Positions 42,536-50,691 of a stretch of DNA of 64,000 nt are shown here, piece after piece; within the stretch, counting starts at the first letter, position 1; every line of letters starts with the position of its first letter. This DNA is from an uncultured Actinomycetes bacterium. Its GTDB lineage: Bacteria; Actinomycetota; Thermoleophilia; Solirubrobacterales; 70-9. Under the pieces are notes generated by a model. It had not been told where the DNA came from. It saw only the letters and a program-made list of their open reading frames with translations, and did no database searches. Both the position numbers and the translations under genes were made by a program. The stretch is from contig CAWAUA010000002.1 of the NCBI GenBank assembly GCA_963785175.1, forward strand, positions 43,443 to 107,442, read 5' to 3'.

Positions 42536-43651
42536 TCAGGGTAACCGCGGCGGAGGTAGCCGATAGGTGGCCGGCGTCTTCGAGAGCTTGATCGGGTTGC
42601 GGGGGAGGCGGACCGGCGGGCCATCCTCGCCGGGGATCTCGACGATCGGGTCGAGGCCGATCTGGGCGGCGAACTCGAAGGCGGCGCCGACGTCGTTGAC
42701 CTCGCCCGCAGGTACCCGCTGCGCCCGCAGCAGCTCGACCCACTCCGCTGCCGTCTTGCCCGCGAATGCCTCCTCGAGCAGCGCCCGCAGCTCGTCGCGG
42801 TGCTCGACCCGCGCCGGGTTGGTCGCGAAGCGCGCGTCGTCGGCGAGGGTGTCGTCCCCGAGCACCGCGCAGAGGGCAATGAACTGGCGGTCGTTGCCGA
42901 CTGCGAGGACGATCTCACCCTCACCGCAGCGCAGCAGTTCGTAGGGGGCGATGCTGGGGTGGCGGTTGCCCATCCGGCCGGGCACAACCCCGGCGACGGT
43001 GTAGGCGGAGCTCTGGTTGACGAGCGCGGCCAGCAGCGTCGAGAGCAGGTCGACCTCGACCAGCTGTCCCTCGCCGCTCTCGCGGCGATGCTCGAGCGCG
43101 GCGAGGATTCCGACCGCCGCGTAGAGGCCGGCGATCACGTCGACGAGGGCGACCCCGACCTTCAGCGGCTCGCCGTCGGGCTCGCCGGTGACGCTCATCA
43201 GGCCGCCCAGGGCCTGGACCAGGAGGTCGTATCCCGGCAGCTCGGCGCCGGCGCCGCTGCCGCCGAAGCCGGTGATCGAACAGAAGACGAGCCGCGGGTT
43301 CTCCCGCACCAGCTCCTCGTAGCCGAGGCCGAGCTCCGCCATCAGCCCGGGGCGGAAGTTCTCGACGACGACGTCGGCAGCGAGGGCGAGGCGGCGGGCC
43401 TCGGCCAGGTCCTCGGGGCCGCGGAGGTCGAGGGCGACGCTGCGCTTGTTGCGGTTGACCGCCTGGAAGTAGGTCGCCTCGCCGGCGGCGTCGTGGGGCG
43501 GCCCCCAGGAGCGGGTGTCGTCGCCGCTCCCCGGCCGCTCGACCTTGGTCACCTCGGCGCCGAGGTCGGCCAGGGTCATCGTCGCCAGCGGGCCGGCGAG
43601 GACGCGCGAGAAGTCGAGGATCCGCAATCGCCCTAGCGCCGAGTCGGCCAT
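42536..43651 (-). CDS. CaiB/BaiF family III CoA-transferase
   Basis: LRILDFSRVLAGPLATMTLADLGAEVTKVERP N-terminus is typical of family III CoA transferases. Confidence 0.88.
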   Translation of the reverse strand: MADSALGRLRILDFSRVLAGPLATMTLADLGAEVTKVERPGSGDDTRSWGPPHDAAGEATYFQAVNRNKRSVALDLRGPEDLAEARRLALAADVVVENFRPGLMAELGLGYEELVRENPRLVFCSITGFGGSGAGAELPGYDLLVQALGGLMSVTGEPDGEPLKVGVALVDVIAGLYAAVGILAALEHRRESGEGQLVEVDLLSTLLAALVNQSSAYTVAGVVPGRMGNRHPSIAPYELLRCGEGEIVLAVGNDRQFIALCAVLGDDTLADDARFATNPARVEHRDELRALLEEAFAGKTAAEWVELLRAQRVPAGEVNDVGAAFEFAAQIGLDPIVEIPGEDGPPVRLPRNPIKLSKTPATYRLPPPRLP

Positions 43652-45706: not shown

Positions 45707-45952
45707 ATGGTCTACGCGCTGATGGGTTTCTTCCACGCCAGGGTGTCGCGGCGGGTCTGGGAGATCCGGCGGCTGGCGGGGGAGACGGGGCAGGGGACGG
45801 TCGAGTACGTCGGCTTGATCCTGCTCGTCTCGCTGCTGATGGTCGGGATGGTCGCGGCGATGAAAGGTTTCAACGGCAAACAGGGAACCGAGCTCGCCGA
45901 CGTGATCGTCAACAAGATCAAGGAGGCGGTCGACAAGGTCGCCTTCAAATAG
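45707..45952 (+). CDS. Flp/Fap-type (type IVb, Tad) prepilin-like protein
   Basis: GQGTVEYVGLILLVSLLMVG matches the Flp G/xxxxEY processing motif followed by a hydrophobic helix. Confidence 0.6.
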   Translation: MVYALMGFFHARVSRRVWEIRRLAGETGQGTVEYVGLILLVSLLMVGMVAAMKGFNGKQGTELADVIVNKIKEAVDKVAFK

Positions 45953-45958
45953 GACCCG

Positions 45959-45995
45959 TGGCGCTTTTGTCTCCCATGAGGGGACAAAAGCGCCA
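45959..45995 (+). terminator. hairpin terminator after the flp-like gene
   Basis: TGGCGCTTTTGTC (45959-45971) pairs with GACAAAAGCGCCA (45983-45995). Confidence 0.6.
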
Positions 45996-46011
45996 TTCCC
46001 ATTCGTCGCTC

Positions 46012-46740
46012 TTACAGCAGTTCCCTGATCGCTTCGTCGAAGACCGTGGGTTCTTCAAGCGAGAAGTGGCGAAGGGGGCGGGCTTGTCCCCCCGTCGGCC
46101 CGATCAGAAACGACGGCGTGCTGCGCCCAGGTAATTCCTTGTGCCAGGCCAGCAGTTCATCGGCTCCGATCTTCCGAGCCCAGTGATCGGATTCGCGTTC
46201 TTCTGCCCACTGCCACAGGTCGACCCCCGCCTGTTCGGCGATTCCTTCGAGGAAGTCATCGTCCGCGTAGCGGCTGAACTCGGGGCGTTGTTCGCGGTAG
46301 AAGAGGTTGACGAAGGTCCACATCTTTCCCTGCTGTCCAGCCGCCAATGCCGCAATGTGCTGATGGAAGAATTCCGAGGAACTGGGCGTGTCGGTCTCTG
46401 TCGAGCGATAGACGATGCGCAGCTTGCCGCCGCGGACCCAATGGCGGATCAGGAAGGGAAGGGCTCCCAGCATCACCTGCCGCGACTGCGAGCACTGGAG
46501 GTCGCCGAAGAACTGAAGCGTGACCGGTGCCTTGGGATCCCCCAGGGCAGCCCCGCGCTGGGGGATGCCGGCCAGCAGATTTTCGGTCCGGCTGATCGCG
46601 GCCTCTTCAGTGGCAGAGAACGATTTGCTCTCGGCCACCGACGGTCCACCGCTGGTAGCCACGATCACCGCAATGACAGCCACGGGCACCGCCAGCGCAA
46701 GGGGGAGATAGCTCAGCTTGTCTTCCCTCAACCCTTGCAT
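46012..46740 (-). CDS. DsbA-family thioredoxin-fold protein with CxxS active site
   Basis: Start at ATG 46740, N-terminal TM anchor, then VTLQFFGDLQCSQSRQ where DsbA-like proteins carry CxxC. Confidence 0.65.
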   Translation of the reverse strand: MQGLREDKLSYLPLALAVPVAVIAVIVATSGGPSVAESKSFSATEEAAISRTENLLAGIPQRGAALGDPKAPVTLQFFGDLQCSQSRQVMLGALPFLIRHWVRGGKLRIVYRSTETDTPSSSEFFHQHIAALAAGQQGKMWTFVNLFYREQRPEFSRYADDDFLEGIAEQAGVDLWQWAEERESDHWARKIGADELLAWHKELPGRSTPSFLIGPTGGQARPLRHFSLEEPTVFDEAIRELL

Positions 46741-46808
46741 TCCAAAAAAGGTATGGCATAGTACCCCAATGGTCAAGGATTCAAACCCATTCGACACAGG
46801 TTGATCGA

Positions 46809-49800
46809 ATGACCCTCCGGGCCAGAGCACTTGCTGTCTGCCTCTTGGCCTTCCTCGTCCCGGCTCTGCTCGCCACCACCTACAGCTTCGCCTGCCCGAG
46901 CCAGCCGCCGGTCCCACCGCCGAATAAATACGGCGGACCCCCACCTCCCCCACCAATCAGCGGCGGCGGCGGAATTCCAGTCGGCCCAACGTTTCCGAAT
47001 CCATCCGCCCCAAACATGCCGAACTGCTTCAAGGCCAAGCCGGTCAACTGCGCCAGCGGCAACCAGACCGAGGGACAGACCGATTTTGCTTTGGGCGGCC
47101 GCGGGCCCGCCCTTGCCATCACCCGCTCCTACAACTCCCAAGCCGCCGCCGAAGCCGAAGAAGCAGGTCCCTGGGGCTACGGCTGGTCTGGCCCTTACAG
47201 CGCCCATTTGGAATTCAACGAAGAATCCGGCGTGGTCACCGTCGTCCAGGAAAACGGCGCCACCGCGGCCTTCGTCCTCTATGAAAGCGAATACATCCCC
47301 GGTGAATGGATCCAGGCCACCCTGGTCAAGGAAATCGTCGAAGGCAAAGAAATCTACGTCTTCACCCTTCCCACCCAGGAAGAGCTCAAGTTCAACTCCG
47401 AAGGCAAGCTGACCGAGGTCAGGGATCGCAACGGCAACGCGATCACGCTCAGCTACGAATCCGGCAAGTTGACCAAAGTCAAAGACGCCGCCGGGCGGGA
47501 ACTGATCTTCGCCTATACGGGCGCCCAGGTGACGAGCGTCGAAGATCCGATGGGCCACAAATACAAATACACCTACGAATCAGGCAACCTCGCCTCGGTG
47601 ACGATGCCCGGTGAAGAAACCGCACGCTGGAAATTCAAATATGACGCCTCCCATCAGCTGACCGAAATGACCGACGGGCGCGGTGGCGCGACCAAAACCG
47701 AATACGACGGACAGAATCGGGTCATCAAACAGACCGACGCGGCAGAACGGGTGACCAAATTCGAATACGGCGAATCCGAAGGCTACACGACGACGACGAT
47801 CACCGAGCCGAACGGATCGACGACCTTCGAGATGTTCAACGAAGCAGGCGAGCCGCTGGAAGTGATCAAGGCCACAGGCACCGGCCTCGAAAAGAAAACC
47901 ACCAACGAATACGACGAAGCCTACGAGCTCGTCAAAACGACCGATGCTCTCGGCCACTCAACCACCTTCGAATACAGCGCCGCCGGGGACCTAACGCTCG
48001 AGAAAGACGCCGAAGGCAACGAATCGACACGGACCTACAACGCAGACCACGAGATCGAAACCGAAACCACGCCGAAGGGCGAGAAAACCACCTACATACG
48101 CGGCGCCCATGGCAACGTGGAAGCGATCGAACGCCCCGCACCGGGGGGAACGACCCAGAAAACGAGCTTCAAATACGCCGAAAACAGCGACCTGGAATCA
48201 GAGACCGACCCGCTCGGCCGCGAAACCAAATTCGAATATGACGCCTACGGCAATAAGAAAGCCGAAACCGACCCCGAAGGGAACAAGACGACCTGGACCT
48301 ACGACAAAGACGGCCACGCGATCACCGCAGTCAGCCCGCGGGGCAACGAAGAAGGCGCCAAAGCCGAAGAATTCGAAACCAAAACGGAACTCGACGCCCA
48401 GGGTCGCCCGATCAAGGTCACCGATCCGCTCGGCCATGAAACCAAATCCGCCTACGACAAAAATGGCAACCTCGAATCGTTGACCGACGCCCTTGGACAT
48501 ACGACCAAATACACCTACGACGCTGAGAACGAGCAGACCAAAGTCGAATTGGCAAACGGAAACACCACCGAAACCGCCTACGACAGCATGGGTCAGGTCA
48601 AAAGCCGCACGACCGGCAACGGCTACACCACCAAATACGAACACAACGCGCTCGGGCAGGGGACCGAAACGATCGATCCGCTGGAACGTAAAACCGTCGG
48701 CAATTACGACGCAGCCGGCAACCTAAAAGAAACCGAAGACGCGCTCGGCCGCACGGTCGCTTACAGCTACGACGCCGCCAACCGGCCCAAAGAAGTCAAC
48801 TACTCCGAAGAAGCCACCCACGACGTCACCTACGAATACGACAAAGATGGCAACGTGACGAAAATGGTCGATGGGACGGGGACGACGACCAGGGAATATG
48901 ACCAGCTCGGCCGGCTGACGGAAGTTAAAAACGGGGCCAAAGAAGTCGTCAAATACAAATACGACCTCGGCAATCAGCAGAGTGAAATCACCTATCCCAA
49001 CGGCGAAACGGTCAAACGCGAATTCGACAAAGATGGGCGCTTGAAGAAGATCACCGACTGGCTCGGTAAGGAAACTACGTTCACCTACAACCGCGACTCG
49101 CAACTGAAAGCGACGACCTTCCCTGCCGAAACCACCAACGTCGACGAATATGCCTACGACAAAGCGGGCCAACTTACGGAAATCTCGATGAAGAAGAAAG
49201 CCGAAGTCTTGGCCTCGATGTCCTACACCCGCGACAAAATCGGGCAGATCGAAAAAGCCGTCGAGACCGCCTTCCCCAAAGTTCCCGAATACAAATACGA
49301 ATATGACGCTGCCAACCGCCTGACCAAAAGCAACGGCACGCTGTTCGGATATGACAAAGCCAACAACGTGACCAAAATCGCCCCGGCGACCTACACCTAT
49401 GACAAAGCCGACCAGATCGCCACGGCAAGCACCGGGACCTTCGAATACAACAAAATCGGTCAGCGGATCAAAGAAACGCCTACCGGCGGATCGGCCACCA
49501 CTTTTTCCTATGATCAGGCCGGGAACCTGGTCGAAAGCAAAGGCCCGGAAATCGAAAACACCTTCCAATACGACGGCACTGGGCTGCGAACGAAGGAAAC
49601 CAAAAACGCCACCACTTATCCGATGGCATGGGATCCGACGCCGGAACTTCCGCTCTTGCTTCGCGCAGGAAACGACTACTTCATCTATGGTCCGGACGGC
49701 CTCCCGCTCGAGCAGATCACCTCGGGCTCGACGACCTATCTGCACCACGACCAACTGGGGTCGACCCGTCTCCTGACGGGCTCGACGGGAACCGTGACGG

Positions 49801-50546
49801 GCACTTACCGGTATGGCCCCAGTGGGGCGTTCACGGAACACACCGGAACCGGCAGCACCCTGATGGGGTTCGCCGGACAGCGCCGGATGCGCACGGAAAA
49901 TCAGCTGATCTATTTGCGGGCCCGGACCTACGATCCGGTGACGGCTCAGTTCCTCAGCGTGGATCCGGCGGTGGCGTCGACGGGAGAAACCTACGGCTAT
50001 GCAGGGGGCAACCCTGTCAATGCAAGCGATCCGAGTGGCCTATGGGTTGCTGGCATCTGTGGCTCGGTGAGTGGGATAGGTATTGTCGGCGCTACGGCAT
50101 GCGTTGAGATGGATGGCCGCAATATTGGCATAACCGGTTTTTCTAACGGAGTCAGTATGTGGAGCAACGTGCACGAGTGGCTTGAAGGGCTTTGTGATAT
50201 TGCCAATACTTGGAAGGCTGCTGGCCAAGTGGGGGCTTTGAGTAGTGTGAGTGGGTTGGCGACCGTATTTAAGAAACTCTTCGGGTTCGACGGAGGCACG
50301 ATGTGGAGCAGCGCGCAATCAATAGATGAATTGAACGGCTCATTTAGTTCAACGCTTACTTCATCTACGATTGGGTGGGTCCATGGGTCTAAGCGCAGCT
50401 TTCGTAACAGTAAGGGTGTTAACGGTACGATATTGTTGGGTGGAGAGAACTCCATTCCATGGCTAGACATTTTTCACACGACCAGCGAGCCGATCACTAT
50501 GTACTCCAAGTCCATGCGGGATCCACTTCTTCGCAATTTGCCCTGA
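46809..50546 (+). CDS. secreted RHS/YD-repeat protein with polymorphic C-terminal toxin module
   Basis: Signal peptide MTLRARALAVCLLAFLVPALLA and dozens of YD repeats (xYxYDxxGNL). The core ends GGNPVNASDPSGL at 50042. A 167-aa tail follows (50043-50543). Confidence 0.9.
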   Translation: MTLRARALAVCLLAFLVPALLATTYSFACPSQPPVPPPNKYGGPPPPPPISGGGGIPVGPTFPNPSAPNMPNCFKAKPVNCASGNQTEGQTDFALGGRGPALAITRSYNSQAAAEAEEAGPWGYGWSGPYSAHLEFNEESGVVTVVQENGATAAFVLYESEYIPGEWIQATLVKEIVEGKEIYVFTLPTQEELKFNSEGKLTEVRDRNGNAITLSYESGKLTKVKDAAGRELIFAYTGAQVTSVEDPMGHKYKYTYESGNLASVTMPGEETARWKFKYDASHQLTEMTDGRGGATKTEYDGQNRVIKQTDAAERVTKFEYGESEGYTTTTITEPNGSTTFEMFNEAGEPLEVIKATGTGLEKKTTNEYDEAYELVKTTDALGHSTTFEYSAAGDLTLEKDAEGNESTRTYNADHEIETETTPKGEKTTYIRGAHGNVEAIERPAPGGTTQKTSFKYAENSDLESETDPLGRETKFEYDAYGNKKAETDPEGNKTTWTYDKDGHAITAVSPRGNEEGAKAEEFETKTELDAQGRPIKVTDPLGHETKSAYDKNGNLESLTDALGHTTKYTYDAENEQTKVELANGNTTETAYDSMGQVKSRTTGNGYTTKYEHNALGQGTETIDPLERKTVGNYDAAGNLKETEDALGRTVAYSYDAANRPKEVNYSEEATHDVTYEYDKDGNVTKMVDGTGTTTREYDQLGRLTEVKNGAKEVVKYKYDLGNQQSEITYPNGETVKREFDKDGRLKKITDWLGKETTFTYNRDSQLKATTFPAETTNVDEYAYDKAGQLTEISMKKKAEVLASMSYTRDKIGQIEKAVETAFPKVPEYKYEYDAANRLTKSNGTLFGYDKANNVTKIAPATYTYDKADQIATASTGTFEYNKIGQRIKETPTGGSATTFSYDQAGNLVESKGPEIENTFQYDGTGLRTKETKNATTYPMAWDPTPELPLLLRAGNDYFIYGPDGLPLEQITSGSTTYLHHDQLGSTRLLTGSTGTVTGTYRYGPSGAFTEHTGTGSTLMGFAGQRRMRTENQLIYLRARTYDPVTAQFLSVDPAVASTGETYGYAGGNPVNASDPSGLWVAGICGSVSGIGIVGATACVEMDGRNIGITGFSNGVSMWSNVHEWLEGLCDIANTWKAAGQVGALSSVSGLATVFKKLFGFDGGTMWSSAQSIDELNGSFSSTLTSSTIGWVHGSKRSFRNSKGVNGTILLGGENSIPWLDIFHTTSEPITMYSKSMRDPLLRNLP

Positions 50547-50691
50547 GGTCCAGGCAGCGATCAGTCTAAGATCTACGGCAGGGTGGGTGGTCTAATGATG
50601 GAGGTAGCGGTAGATATCCGCTGACTAGAATTTCTGGATCAACAAGAGCACCACTCGCCGCTTGGTTGCCTCCGCATGAGAGACTCGCGCG

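Follow-up and report, generated by a model that had tools for sequence, protein, structure and literature searches.

A WapA-like RHS protein of uncultured Solirubrobacterales carries a cargo domain from a tail family without adjacent immunity genes

Introduction

Polymorphic toxin systems are defined by toxin–immunity pairs. Among known systems, those closest to the gene described here include the WapA-type, Sec-dependent Rhs toxins of Gram-positive bacteria, such as WapA of Bacillus subtilis. We analyze the RHS/YD-shell gene in a 64-kb stretch of DNA (the window; positions 43,443 to 107,442 of contig CAWAUA010000002.1, assembly GCA_963785175.1) from a member of the Solirubrobacterales, an abundant but uncultured soil actinobacterial order, and the 167-amino-acid (aa) cargo domain (the tail) at the C-terminus (CT) of its product. 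The tail belongs to a superfamily of tails that are carried by one highly conserved, presumably Sec-exported shell, and its family lacks an adjacent immunity gene. An earlier reading of the letters of the window (the original prediction) had described the tail as an unrecognised, AT-richer, swapped-in module resembling a glycine zipper, possibly a novel membrane-targeting toxin domain.

The WapA-type, Sec-dependent arrangement of Gram-positive bacteria is marked by a signal peptide that replaces the PAAR or LXG domain (PMC12704120), and the Rhs cage is plugged at its N-terminus by DUF6531 (PMC10684867, PMC12704120). An aspartyl autoprotease with the motif DPXGX18DPXG that cuts after Leu has been described for Tse5 of Pseudomonas aeruginosa and other Rhs proteins (PMC10684867). 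Where polymorphic toxins lack immunity proteins, they have been interpreted as weapons whose use lies outside intraspecific conflict, and non-catalytic cargo domains are a recognized class in polymorphic toxins (Zhang et al., 2012; PMC3482391).

Like WapA-type proteins, including that of Streptococcus suis (PMC12704120), the RHS protein of the window has an N-terminal signal peptide, not a PAAR, VgrG, or LXG domain; it also has the DUF6531 plug, the YD shell, and a core ending in DPxGL, the point at which polymorphic cargo is exchanged. Unlike them, it has no downstream immunity gene and no orphan CT/immunity cassettes, and no cell-wall-binding domain was detected in it. WapA tails are nucleases or periplasm-acting enzymes, whereas the cargo in the window has no recognizable enzymatic fold, and the partners of the S. 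suis WapA are srtB and secF-like genes (PMC12704120), whereas the partner here is an upstream gene for a monothiol DsbA-like protein. Tse5 (PMC10684867) offers a second likeness: a shell encloses a small (about 16 kDa), non-enzymatic CT, for which membrane activity is only proposed in our case, and an aspartyl autoprotease motif, of the form DPXGX19DPXG in Tse5 and with a cut after Leu, accompanies a DUF6531 plug, cleavage being predicted in our case. However, Tse5 is delivered by the type VI secretion system via a PAAR-like N-terminus, has the cognate immunity protein Tsi5, and has a CT predicted to be helical, whereas the tail in the window is predicted to be beta-rich, has a conserved Cys pair, and has no immunity partner.

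Two further comparisons can be drawn. The Vap proteins of Prescottella equi (PDB 4cv7, 5aeo, and 4csb) are small, secreted actinobacterial beta-barrels with one helical element and no enzymatic site, features that are also predicted for the tail; they differ in being secreted as stand-alone proteins, not as Rhs cargo, and in having no Cys pair. Toxin modules on polymorphic-toxin scaffolds without a cognate immunity gene were described by Zhang et al. (PMC3482391), mainly in intracellular pathogens and symbionts; here the lineage is one of free-living soil actinobacteria and, unlike in those cases, one shell clade holds tails both with and without immunity genes. Our full-text literature searches found no paper that mentions Solirubrobacterales RHS genes or a DsbA-like gene beside an RHS gene.

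Results

The RHS gene (46809..50546, + strand) encodes a protein of 1245 aa. By reading the sequence, its N-terminus is a signal-peptide-like segment (MTLRARALAVCLLAFLVPALLATTYSFA/C) followed by a Pro/Gly-rich linker. The DUF6531 plug occupies residues 77-155 (PF20148, E 4.5e-16), the shell contains YD/RHS repeats (PF05593, E 4.8e-95, in 18 stretches; TIGR01643, E 8e-64), and the Rhs-associated core (TIGR03696) spans residues 1002-1078 and terminates in DPSGL. This end of the core contains the C-terminal autoprotease/cleavage motif D1052-P-A-V-x18-D1074-P-S-G-L1078 (49962..50042, + strand), located from the sequence and from an alignment of 34 homologues (alignment A3) in which the columns D1052, P1053, D1074, and G1077 are invariant. 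As judged from this pattern, the DPAV-x18-DPSGL segment is the counterpart of the published DPXGX18DPXG aspartyl-autoprotease motif (PMC10684867), and self-cleavage is predicted between L1078 and W1079. In the same 34 homologues A28-C29, just after the hydrophobic core of the signal peptide, and C81 are invariant, and C73 is nearly so; C29 could be a lipoprotein acylation site, the residues at -3 to -1 being SFA (the consensus has LA before the Cys), with no classical lipobox.

The tail (residues 1079-1245; 50043..50546, + strand, coding to 50543 with the stop codon ending at 50546), a member of the ‘A2’ tail family, follows DPSGL directly in an intact reading frame. It has no match in Pfam, NCBIfam, or PADLOC; its sole match in PHROGs (E 0.097) and its sole match among PDB sequences, a Kelch-like protein (E 0.011), were judged not credible. 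A word-indexed protein search with the tail alone gave no match, and an exhaustive phmmer search of 1.84 billion cluster representatives gave one real relative, P0003 (a 150-aa fragment on a 1-kb contig from the Joint Genome Institute (JGI), 30% identical to the tail in the window), together with two WD40 proteins. The latter (P0001 and P0002) were rejected as homologues: their similarity is confined to residues 12-40 and stems from a repeated beta-hairpin motif (ATACVEMDGRNIGITG vs AVACAEIDGRPVAVTG). Scans of GTDB genomes and JGI metagenomes with degenerate patterns gave nothing new, and tblastn against plasmids found no relatives of the tail.

The orphan status suggested by these searches is an artefact of clustering and indexing, as a search with the shell (residues 1-1078) exposed RHS proteins with homologous tails. 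The relatives had been missed because clustering at 50% identity merges proteins that share a 70-90% identical shell into few representatives; the RHS protein of the window itself is in none of the protein collections searched. The shell search found 4481 RHS proteins; the best 120 have shells 68-92% identical to that of the window, are each about 1.2-1.4 kb long, and in many cases are named as Solirubrobacterales, and no precomputed Pfam domain lies outside the shell among these 120 listed relatives. We recovered the family by cutting the tails from these proteins at the core junction and comparing them all versus all. Among the listed shell relatives, ten carry homologous tails (P0068, P0050, P0008, P0047, P0005, P0007, P0074, P0009, P0069, and P0003); P0068 is 48% identical over its full length and aligns from end to end (residues 1-163). 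With further copies at two GTDB loci, L024 and L033, the family comprises at least 12 distinct tails, 24-48% identical in BLASTP to that of the window, on closely related shells of uncultured Solirubrobacterales; so far, it has been found only in soil Solirubrobacterales. Thus, ‘unrecognised’ holds with respect to annotation libraries, where a profile of 11 family members also finds no match in Pfam or among PDB sequences, but it does not hold with respect to homology, since real homologues occur on related RHS shells; in the sense of an orphan, the tail is not novel.

Within the family (alignment A2), positions G4, C20, G29, W46, G85, S89, A91, S93, G99, and F120 are invariant, and V2, C6, D24, L97, and F101 are nearly invariant. 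Conservation falls almost entirely on Gly, Cys, and aromatic positions, together with a single Asp and a pair of Ser, whereas His, Glu, Lys, and Arg are conserved nowhere. Such a pattern speaks against a nuclease, deaminase, or ADP-ribosyltransferase, none of whose motifs the original prediction had recognized in the single sequence. Profile comparisons with hhalign extend the family to a superfamily: the tail family matches the tail families fam0, famIV, famL54, and famV with probabilities of 97%, 95%, 95%, and 83%, respectively, as compared with 0.1-0.3% for two control families whose tails begin with a CxCPPPC-type motif. The superfamily accounts for at least 58 of the 166 distinct tails sampled, including the 12 of the family in the window, and its common features are an N-terminal GxC...C hairpin and a SNAxSxxDLxGxF motif.

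The cysteines of these tails follow a pattern of their own. Every full-length family tail has exactly three, two of which are fixed (at 6 and at about 19-24). The third shifts between members, lying at about 152 in most, at 51 in the copy of the window, at 54 in P0069, and at 122-127 in P0009 and P0007. Elsewhere among the sampled tails, 66 of 166 (about 40%) begin with CxCPPPC or CGCPPPPC, continue with a Pro-rich linker, and end in diverse, often Gly/Ala-rich hydrophobic domains; from their sequences, these starts look like a distinct ‘pre-toxin’ linker class. CxCPPPC-type tails occur among those of P0010-P0123 and at L009, L011-L013, L015, L019-L023, and other loci, and those of L011 and L012 have a downstream gene that overlaps the stop codon or follows it closely.

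The spacer between the RHS stop codon and the start of rph (RNase_PH, from 50692) is 145 nucleotides (nt) long (50547..50691) and contains no open reading frame (ORF) of at least 30 aa, the original prediction having read only ORFs of 9 and 12 codons there; the ORFs of at least 20 aa that touch it are a 36-aa ORF leaving the 3' end of the tail and two ORFs of 21 and 25 aa running into rph. No promoter or terminator consensus and no Rfam family were found in the spacer. We screened nine independent family loci for ORFs of at least 50 aa on either strand that start within 1.2-1.6 kb after the stop codon. No two of the loci have a downstream ORF in common, save the pair L002 and L003, which carries identical sequence; 1 of 45 locus pairs shares a downstream ORF, vs 6 of 28, 3 of 3, and 2 of 3 pairs in other tail families. 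The positive controls are the common downstream ORFs of L011/L078, L012/L046/L053, L044/L063/L086, and L060/L083, which typically start 3-12 nt before the RHS stop codon. In a second count, a + strand ORF of at least 60 aa starting between -30 and +120 nt of the stop codon is present at 2 of the 14 loci with tails of the A2 family or fam0, vs 32 of the 47 with unrelated tails. The missing downstream immunity gene, claimed for this one locus at the outset, is thus a property of the whole tail family, and sister tails supply the contrast.

An antisense ORF (49997..50470, - strand, 157 aa) spans most of the tail; it is Pro-rich, a composition to be expected of a strand that lies opposite Gly codons. 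As a hidden immunity gene it was rejected: its counterparts are at most 79 aa long at 6 of 8 homologous loci and 116-135 aa at L002 and L007, and the ORF is probably spurious.

The single-sequence AlphaFold model of the tail is unusable (predicted local distance difference test, pLDDT, 34). With the 11-sequence family alignment, AlphaFold gives a model with a pLDDT of 72.9 and a predicted template modeling (TM) score of 0.67. It contains strands at residues 2-10, 16-23, and 28-34 (pLDDT of the blocks across residues 2-34, 68-87), a helical insert of low confidence at residues 37-80 (helices 37-59 and 65-80; pLDDT 52-54 for residues 41-60 and 45-47 for residues 61-80), and strands at residues 83-89, 99-121, and 127-158 (pLDDT mostly 84-95 per block of ten residues). 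The predicted fold is thus a small beta-barrel or sandwich into which a variable helical segment is inserted, rather than a transmembrane helix; C6 and C20 lie on neighboring strands of the model, which is consistent with a hairpin disulfide.

This model bears on the resemblance to a glycine zipper, which did not survive comparison with the family. The tail contains no GxxxGxxxG, and it has nine [GAS]x3[GAS]x3[GAS] motifs, a number within chance expectation (5.5 +/- 2.4 in shuffles that preserve composition, P = 0.11). Only the window's copy has an N-terminal hydropathy peak of 1.69 over 19 residues; in the homologues the mean hydropathy of the first 21 residues is 0.6-1.35, and some have K, R, or N there. 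The alpha-helical membrane insertion that a zipper would entail also disagrees with the family model, in which residues 2-34 form three beta strands.

In a Foldseek search of the PDB with this moderate-confidence model, no match reaches E <= 0.001. Of the compact matches, the best are to VapB, VapG (two chains), and VapD of P. equi (4cv7, 5aeo, and 4csb), 8-stranded barrels of double Greek-key topology, with E-values of 0.011-0.35, probabilities of 0.97-0.51, TM scores of 0.33-0.37 (query-normalised) and 0.43-0.50 (target-normalised), and root mean square deviations (rmsd) of 6.3-6.8 A. GFP-like barrels come next in the list, with very poor rmsd. Membership in the Vap family was rejected: hhalign against an alignment of VapA/C/D/E/G/H (built from pVAPA1037) gives a probability of 0.4%, and none of the 11 tail members matches a Vap-family Pfam model at E <= 1, their only three Pfam matches being to unrelated domains of unknown function (DUFs). 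The resemblance of the predicted model to Vap proteins is a weak lead at the level of fold, not of membership.

The history of the tail differs from that of its shell. Nucleotide identity to the three closest shells (L089, L008, and L035) is 0.80-0.98 over 47000-50000 and drops to about 0.4 at about 50040, the DPSGL junction. The similarities of shells and tails are also incongruent: P0005 has a shell 88% identical and a tail only 31% identical to those of the window, P0068 has a shell 71% identical and a tail 48% identical, and many unrelated tail classes occur on shells 68-92% identical. The G+C content of the tail is 0.508 (0.554 at third codon positions, GC3), as compared with 0.56 (GC3 0.73) for the RHS shell, 0.63 (GC3 0.75) for the upstream gene described below, and about 0.70 (GC3 0.88-0.95) for the surrounding host genes, with GC3 of 0.90-0.94 in rph, rdgB, and the acyl-CoA dehydrogenase gene; the tail is, as had been noticed from a short count, markedly AT-richer than its neighbors. 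Because of the identity cliff, the low GC3 of the tail, and the incongruence, the nucleotide comparisons show the tail as exchanged by recombination exactly at the DPSGL junction, which agrees with its description as a swapped-in module.

The exchange occurred in a gene that is itself part of a mobile unit. Compared with L037 (10120-10310) and L010 (11310-11510), where nothing separates the homologue of a small Flp-like gene, with its hairpin, from the rph upstream region, the window contains an inserted block of 4.66 kb (45996..50653) composed of the gene for a Thioredoxin_4 protein (Trx4, - strand), the RHS gene (+ strand), and 107 nt; the interval of low G+C content coincides with it. The block is flanked by an imperfect 8-nt repeat (AAGCGCCA at 45988-45995 and GAGCACCA at 50646-50653). 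Accordingly, the first 107 nt of the spacer belong to the block, and the ancestral rph upstream region begins at about 50654. The Trx4–RHS pair lies on the opposite side of the Flp-like gene in L037, L010, and L002 and occurs in unrelated contexts in L005, L007, L008, and L089. At the level of aligned loci, these comparisons show Trx4 and RHS moving as a two-gene block; since this mobile unit has two genes and only 107 nt after the RHS stop codon, it leaves no room for an immunity gene.

Elsewhere, the Trx4–RHS pair is often beside tRNA genes and toxin–antitoxin or defence genes (HEPN/NTase, DUF433/DUF5615, MazE/PIN, Fic, AbiTii, and DUF4365), which suggests that the module sits in variable islands. 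The adjoining tRNA genes (Arg, Met, and Val) are at L007 2363-2437, L064 5637-5710, L089 4613-4686, L014 5126-5199, L033 10029-10100, and L035 10302-10373, with a tRNA-Val-like remnant in L001 at about 840-890; the 64-kb window contains no tRNA gene and no second copy of the RHS gene, the tail, or Trx4. Between genomes with unrelated flanking genes (vs L089, L008, and L035), the DNA of the RHS shell keeps about 85-95% identity, a value above that of the adjacent Trx4 gene (60-80%); the GC3 of the shell is 0.73 vs about 0.92 for genes of the genome. These values suggest recent horizontal spread or homogenisation of the shell.

The Trx4 gene (46012..46740, - strand; PF13462, E 1.4e-8) is transcribed divergently from the RHS gene, its start being set by homologues of ~245 aa. 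It encodes a DsbA-like protein with an N-terminal hydrophobic anchor and a monothiol C-S-Q-S where CxxC is expected; the protein has the thioredoxin fold but not the CxxC active site of a DsbA-type oxidoreductase. Next to related RHS genes, the second Cys is absent from all 28 Cys-bearing Trx4 homologues: among 32 homologues the motif is CxxS in 26, has Ala or Val at the fourth position in two, and is DxxS in 4 distant ones. Trx4 is the only conserved neighbor of the RHS clade; within about 5 kb it is the only ORF family common to at least 4 of the 9 family loci, and it is present in 8.

This constancy might mark Trx4 as the immunity protein specific for the tail, a candidate that we rejected as Trx4 does not co-vary with tail type. 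Identity of the homologues to the window's copy is 36-79% for Trx4 vs 48-90% for the shell, the two correlate weakly (r = 0.42), and possession of the same tail family does not raise Trx4 identity (regression coefficient -0.047). Unrelated tails with a downstream gene of their own (L011 and L012) likewise have Trx4 beside them, and Trx4 is missing from L024, which has the same tail family, and from L026, L030, L038, and L064, which have tails of the sister family fam0. A general role for Trx4 in folding, holding, or releasing Cys-bearing cargo is possible.

Of the remaining features near the block, the Flp-like ORF (45707-45952, + strand, 81 aa) has no Pfam match; its G/TVEYVGLILLV motif resembles those of Flp-type pilin prepeptides. 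It is followed by a perfect-looking bidirectional terminator hairpin (45957-45995), and homologues of the ORF lie downstream of the RHS gene in L002 (7350-7544) and L037 (9943-10208).

Discussion

We favor, with a probability of about 0.5, the explanation that a Sec-exported, WapA-like RHS polymorphic toxin carries the tail as a non-enzymatic cargo that acts outside the cell and to which the producer is intrinsically insensitive. The RHS protein would be exported by Sec, with lipid anchoring via the invariant C29 as a speculative addition; its shell would fold as a cage around the tail and would cleave itself after L1078, the motif being present and the activity predicted from it, so that a small, non-enzymatic beta-barrel stapled by a C6–C20 disulfide would be released. 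The released domain may then bind or permeabilize an envelope or membrane component of another organism, outside the cytoplasm. No cognate immunity would be needed if the target is lacking or inaccessible in the producer, and the system would be a weapon aimed outside the producer's own kind, e.g., at Gram-negative bacteria, fungi, or protists in soil. That immunity may be unnecessary because the producer lacks the target was among the suggestions of the original prediction and is the one that we now favor.

Several observations weigh against this explanation. Loci of 10-17 kb and a 64-kb window leave room for an immunity gene encoded in trans, and the ORF-based screen is blind to immunity proteins under 50-60 aa. 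Most of the comparison loci come from metagenome bins, so the missing gene could occasionally be an assembly effect, which is unlikely as the cause at nine independent loci. The model of the tail is of moderate confidence (pLDDT 73, with residues 40-80 below 55); Foldseek against the PDB returned no match at its E <= 0.001 threshold, and a fold search of BFVD with the model gave nothing informative. Conserved Cys residues and Sec export are the grounds on which the disulfide and a site of action outside the cell are proposed.

The explanation closest to convention is that the tail is an antibacterial toxin against which protection is provided in trans, either by an unlinked immunity gene or by the membrane-anchored CxxS Trx4 as a generic protector. 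The presence of Trx4 as the only conserved neighbor, in 8 of 9 family loci, its faster evolution as compared with the shell, the three Cys (hence an odd one) in every family tail, and the Cys-rich motifs with which all tail classes on Trx4-linked shells begin would all fit such a role. Nevertheless, Trx4 identity does not track the tail family, Trx4 sits beside unrelated tails that have their own downstream gene, one locus of the same family and four of fam0 do without it, and a tail exchanged by recombination would leave an unlinked immunity gene behind; we regard protection in trans as unlikely. A specific version, in which the extracytoplasmic Trx4 forms a mixed disulfide with the unpaired third Cys of the tail, or with the Cys-rich beginning of another tail, holds or neutralises the cargo on the surface of the producer until release, and so acts as a generic redox substitute for cognate immunity, is a long shot. 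The absence of immunity could also mean that there is nothing to be immune to, that is, that the cargo is a binding or adhesion module or a decayed relic; the lack of a catalytic signature in the family, the low GC3, and the location of the tail at the end of the inserted block agree with this. However, the frame is intact and the tail aligns end to end with that of P0068; also, fifteen positions are conserved in a family whose members are only 26-49% identical to the window's tail, and the core motif is kept across five subfamilies, a sign of purifying selection. Moreover, the platform is one that delivers toxins, as tails with canonical immunity partners occur on the same shells. A non-toxic cargo is, in our judgment, distinctly improbable.

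Two explanations concern the way in which the tail would act on membranes. If it were a distant relative of the Vap proteins of Rhodococcus (Prescottella) equi that neutralises or permeabilizes the membranes of a eukaryotic host or predator, such a target would fit the absent immunity; both are secreted actinobacterial proteins, and VapB, VapG (two chains), and VapD supply the four best compact Foldseek matches. The scores of these matches (query-normalised TM of 0.33-0.37, rmsd of 6.3-6.8 A, none at E <= 0.001), the hhalign probability of 0.4%, the failure of all 11 members to match a Vap-family model, and the conserved Cys pair and helical hairpin insert, which Vap proteins lack, speak against descent from that family, so that we think it about as improbable as a non-toxic cargo, or slightly more so. 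Still less probable is a helical, glycine-zipper pore former that inserts into membranes and depolarises target cells in the manner of the Tse5 CT. Its appeal lies in the first 19-21 residues of the window's tail, which are uncharged with a mean Kyte–Doolittle hydropathy of 1.69, in two small-x3-small runs (residues 3-11 and 60-68), and in the existence of Rhs-delivered pore formers such as Tse5 (PMC10684867). In the homologues, however, the N-terminal hydropathy falls to 0.6-1.35, with K, K, N, and R in that stretch of P0007, and the sequence aligned with the second run is charged and amphipathic. The tail itself has no GxxxGxxxG and no small-residue motifs beyond chance expectation, and residues 2-34 are modeled as beta strands; furthermore, Tse5 has the cognate immunity gene tsi5 (PMC10684867).

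Given that unknown C-terminal domains are common in polymorphic toxins and that the architecture, a WapA-like RHS polymorphic toxin, is already known, a specialist would be only moderately surprised by the tail as such. What is new is an unannotated tail family and a superfamily without significant sequence or structural relatives, the family-wide lack of adjacent immunity genes in contrast to sister tails, and the two-gene Trx4(CxxS)–RHS module; of these, the superfamily lacking immunity genes and the monothiol partner merit experimental work. A lesson of method is that clustering a database at 50% identity hides the tail families of polymorphic toxins, as the conserved shell collapses all its variants into one representative.

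For the biology of these soil bacteria, the non-enzymatic beta-barrel cargo that we favor, with a target possibly outside Gram-positive bacteria, would be a candidate antifungal, anti-protist, or anti-Gram-negative protein. The window's subfamily and its closest sister, fam0, have no adjacent immunity gene in 12 of 14 loci, whereas unrelated tails on related shells keep theirs; the shell clade thus offers a clean comparison with which to ask under what conditions immunity to a delivered toxin is needed.

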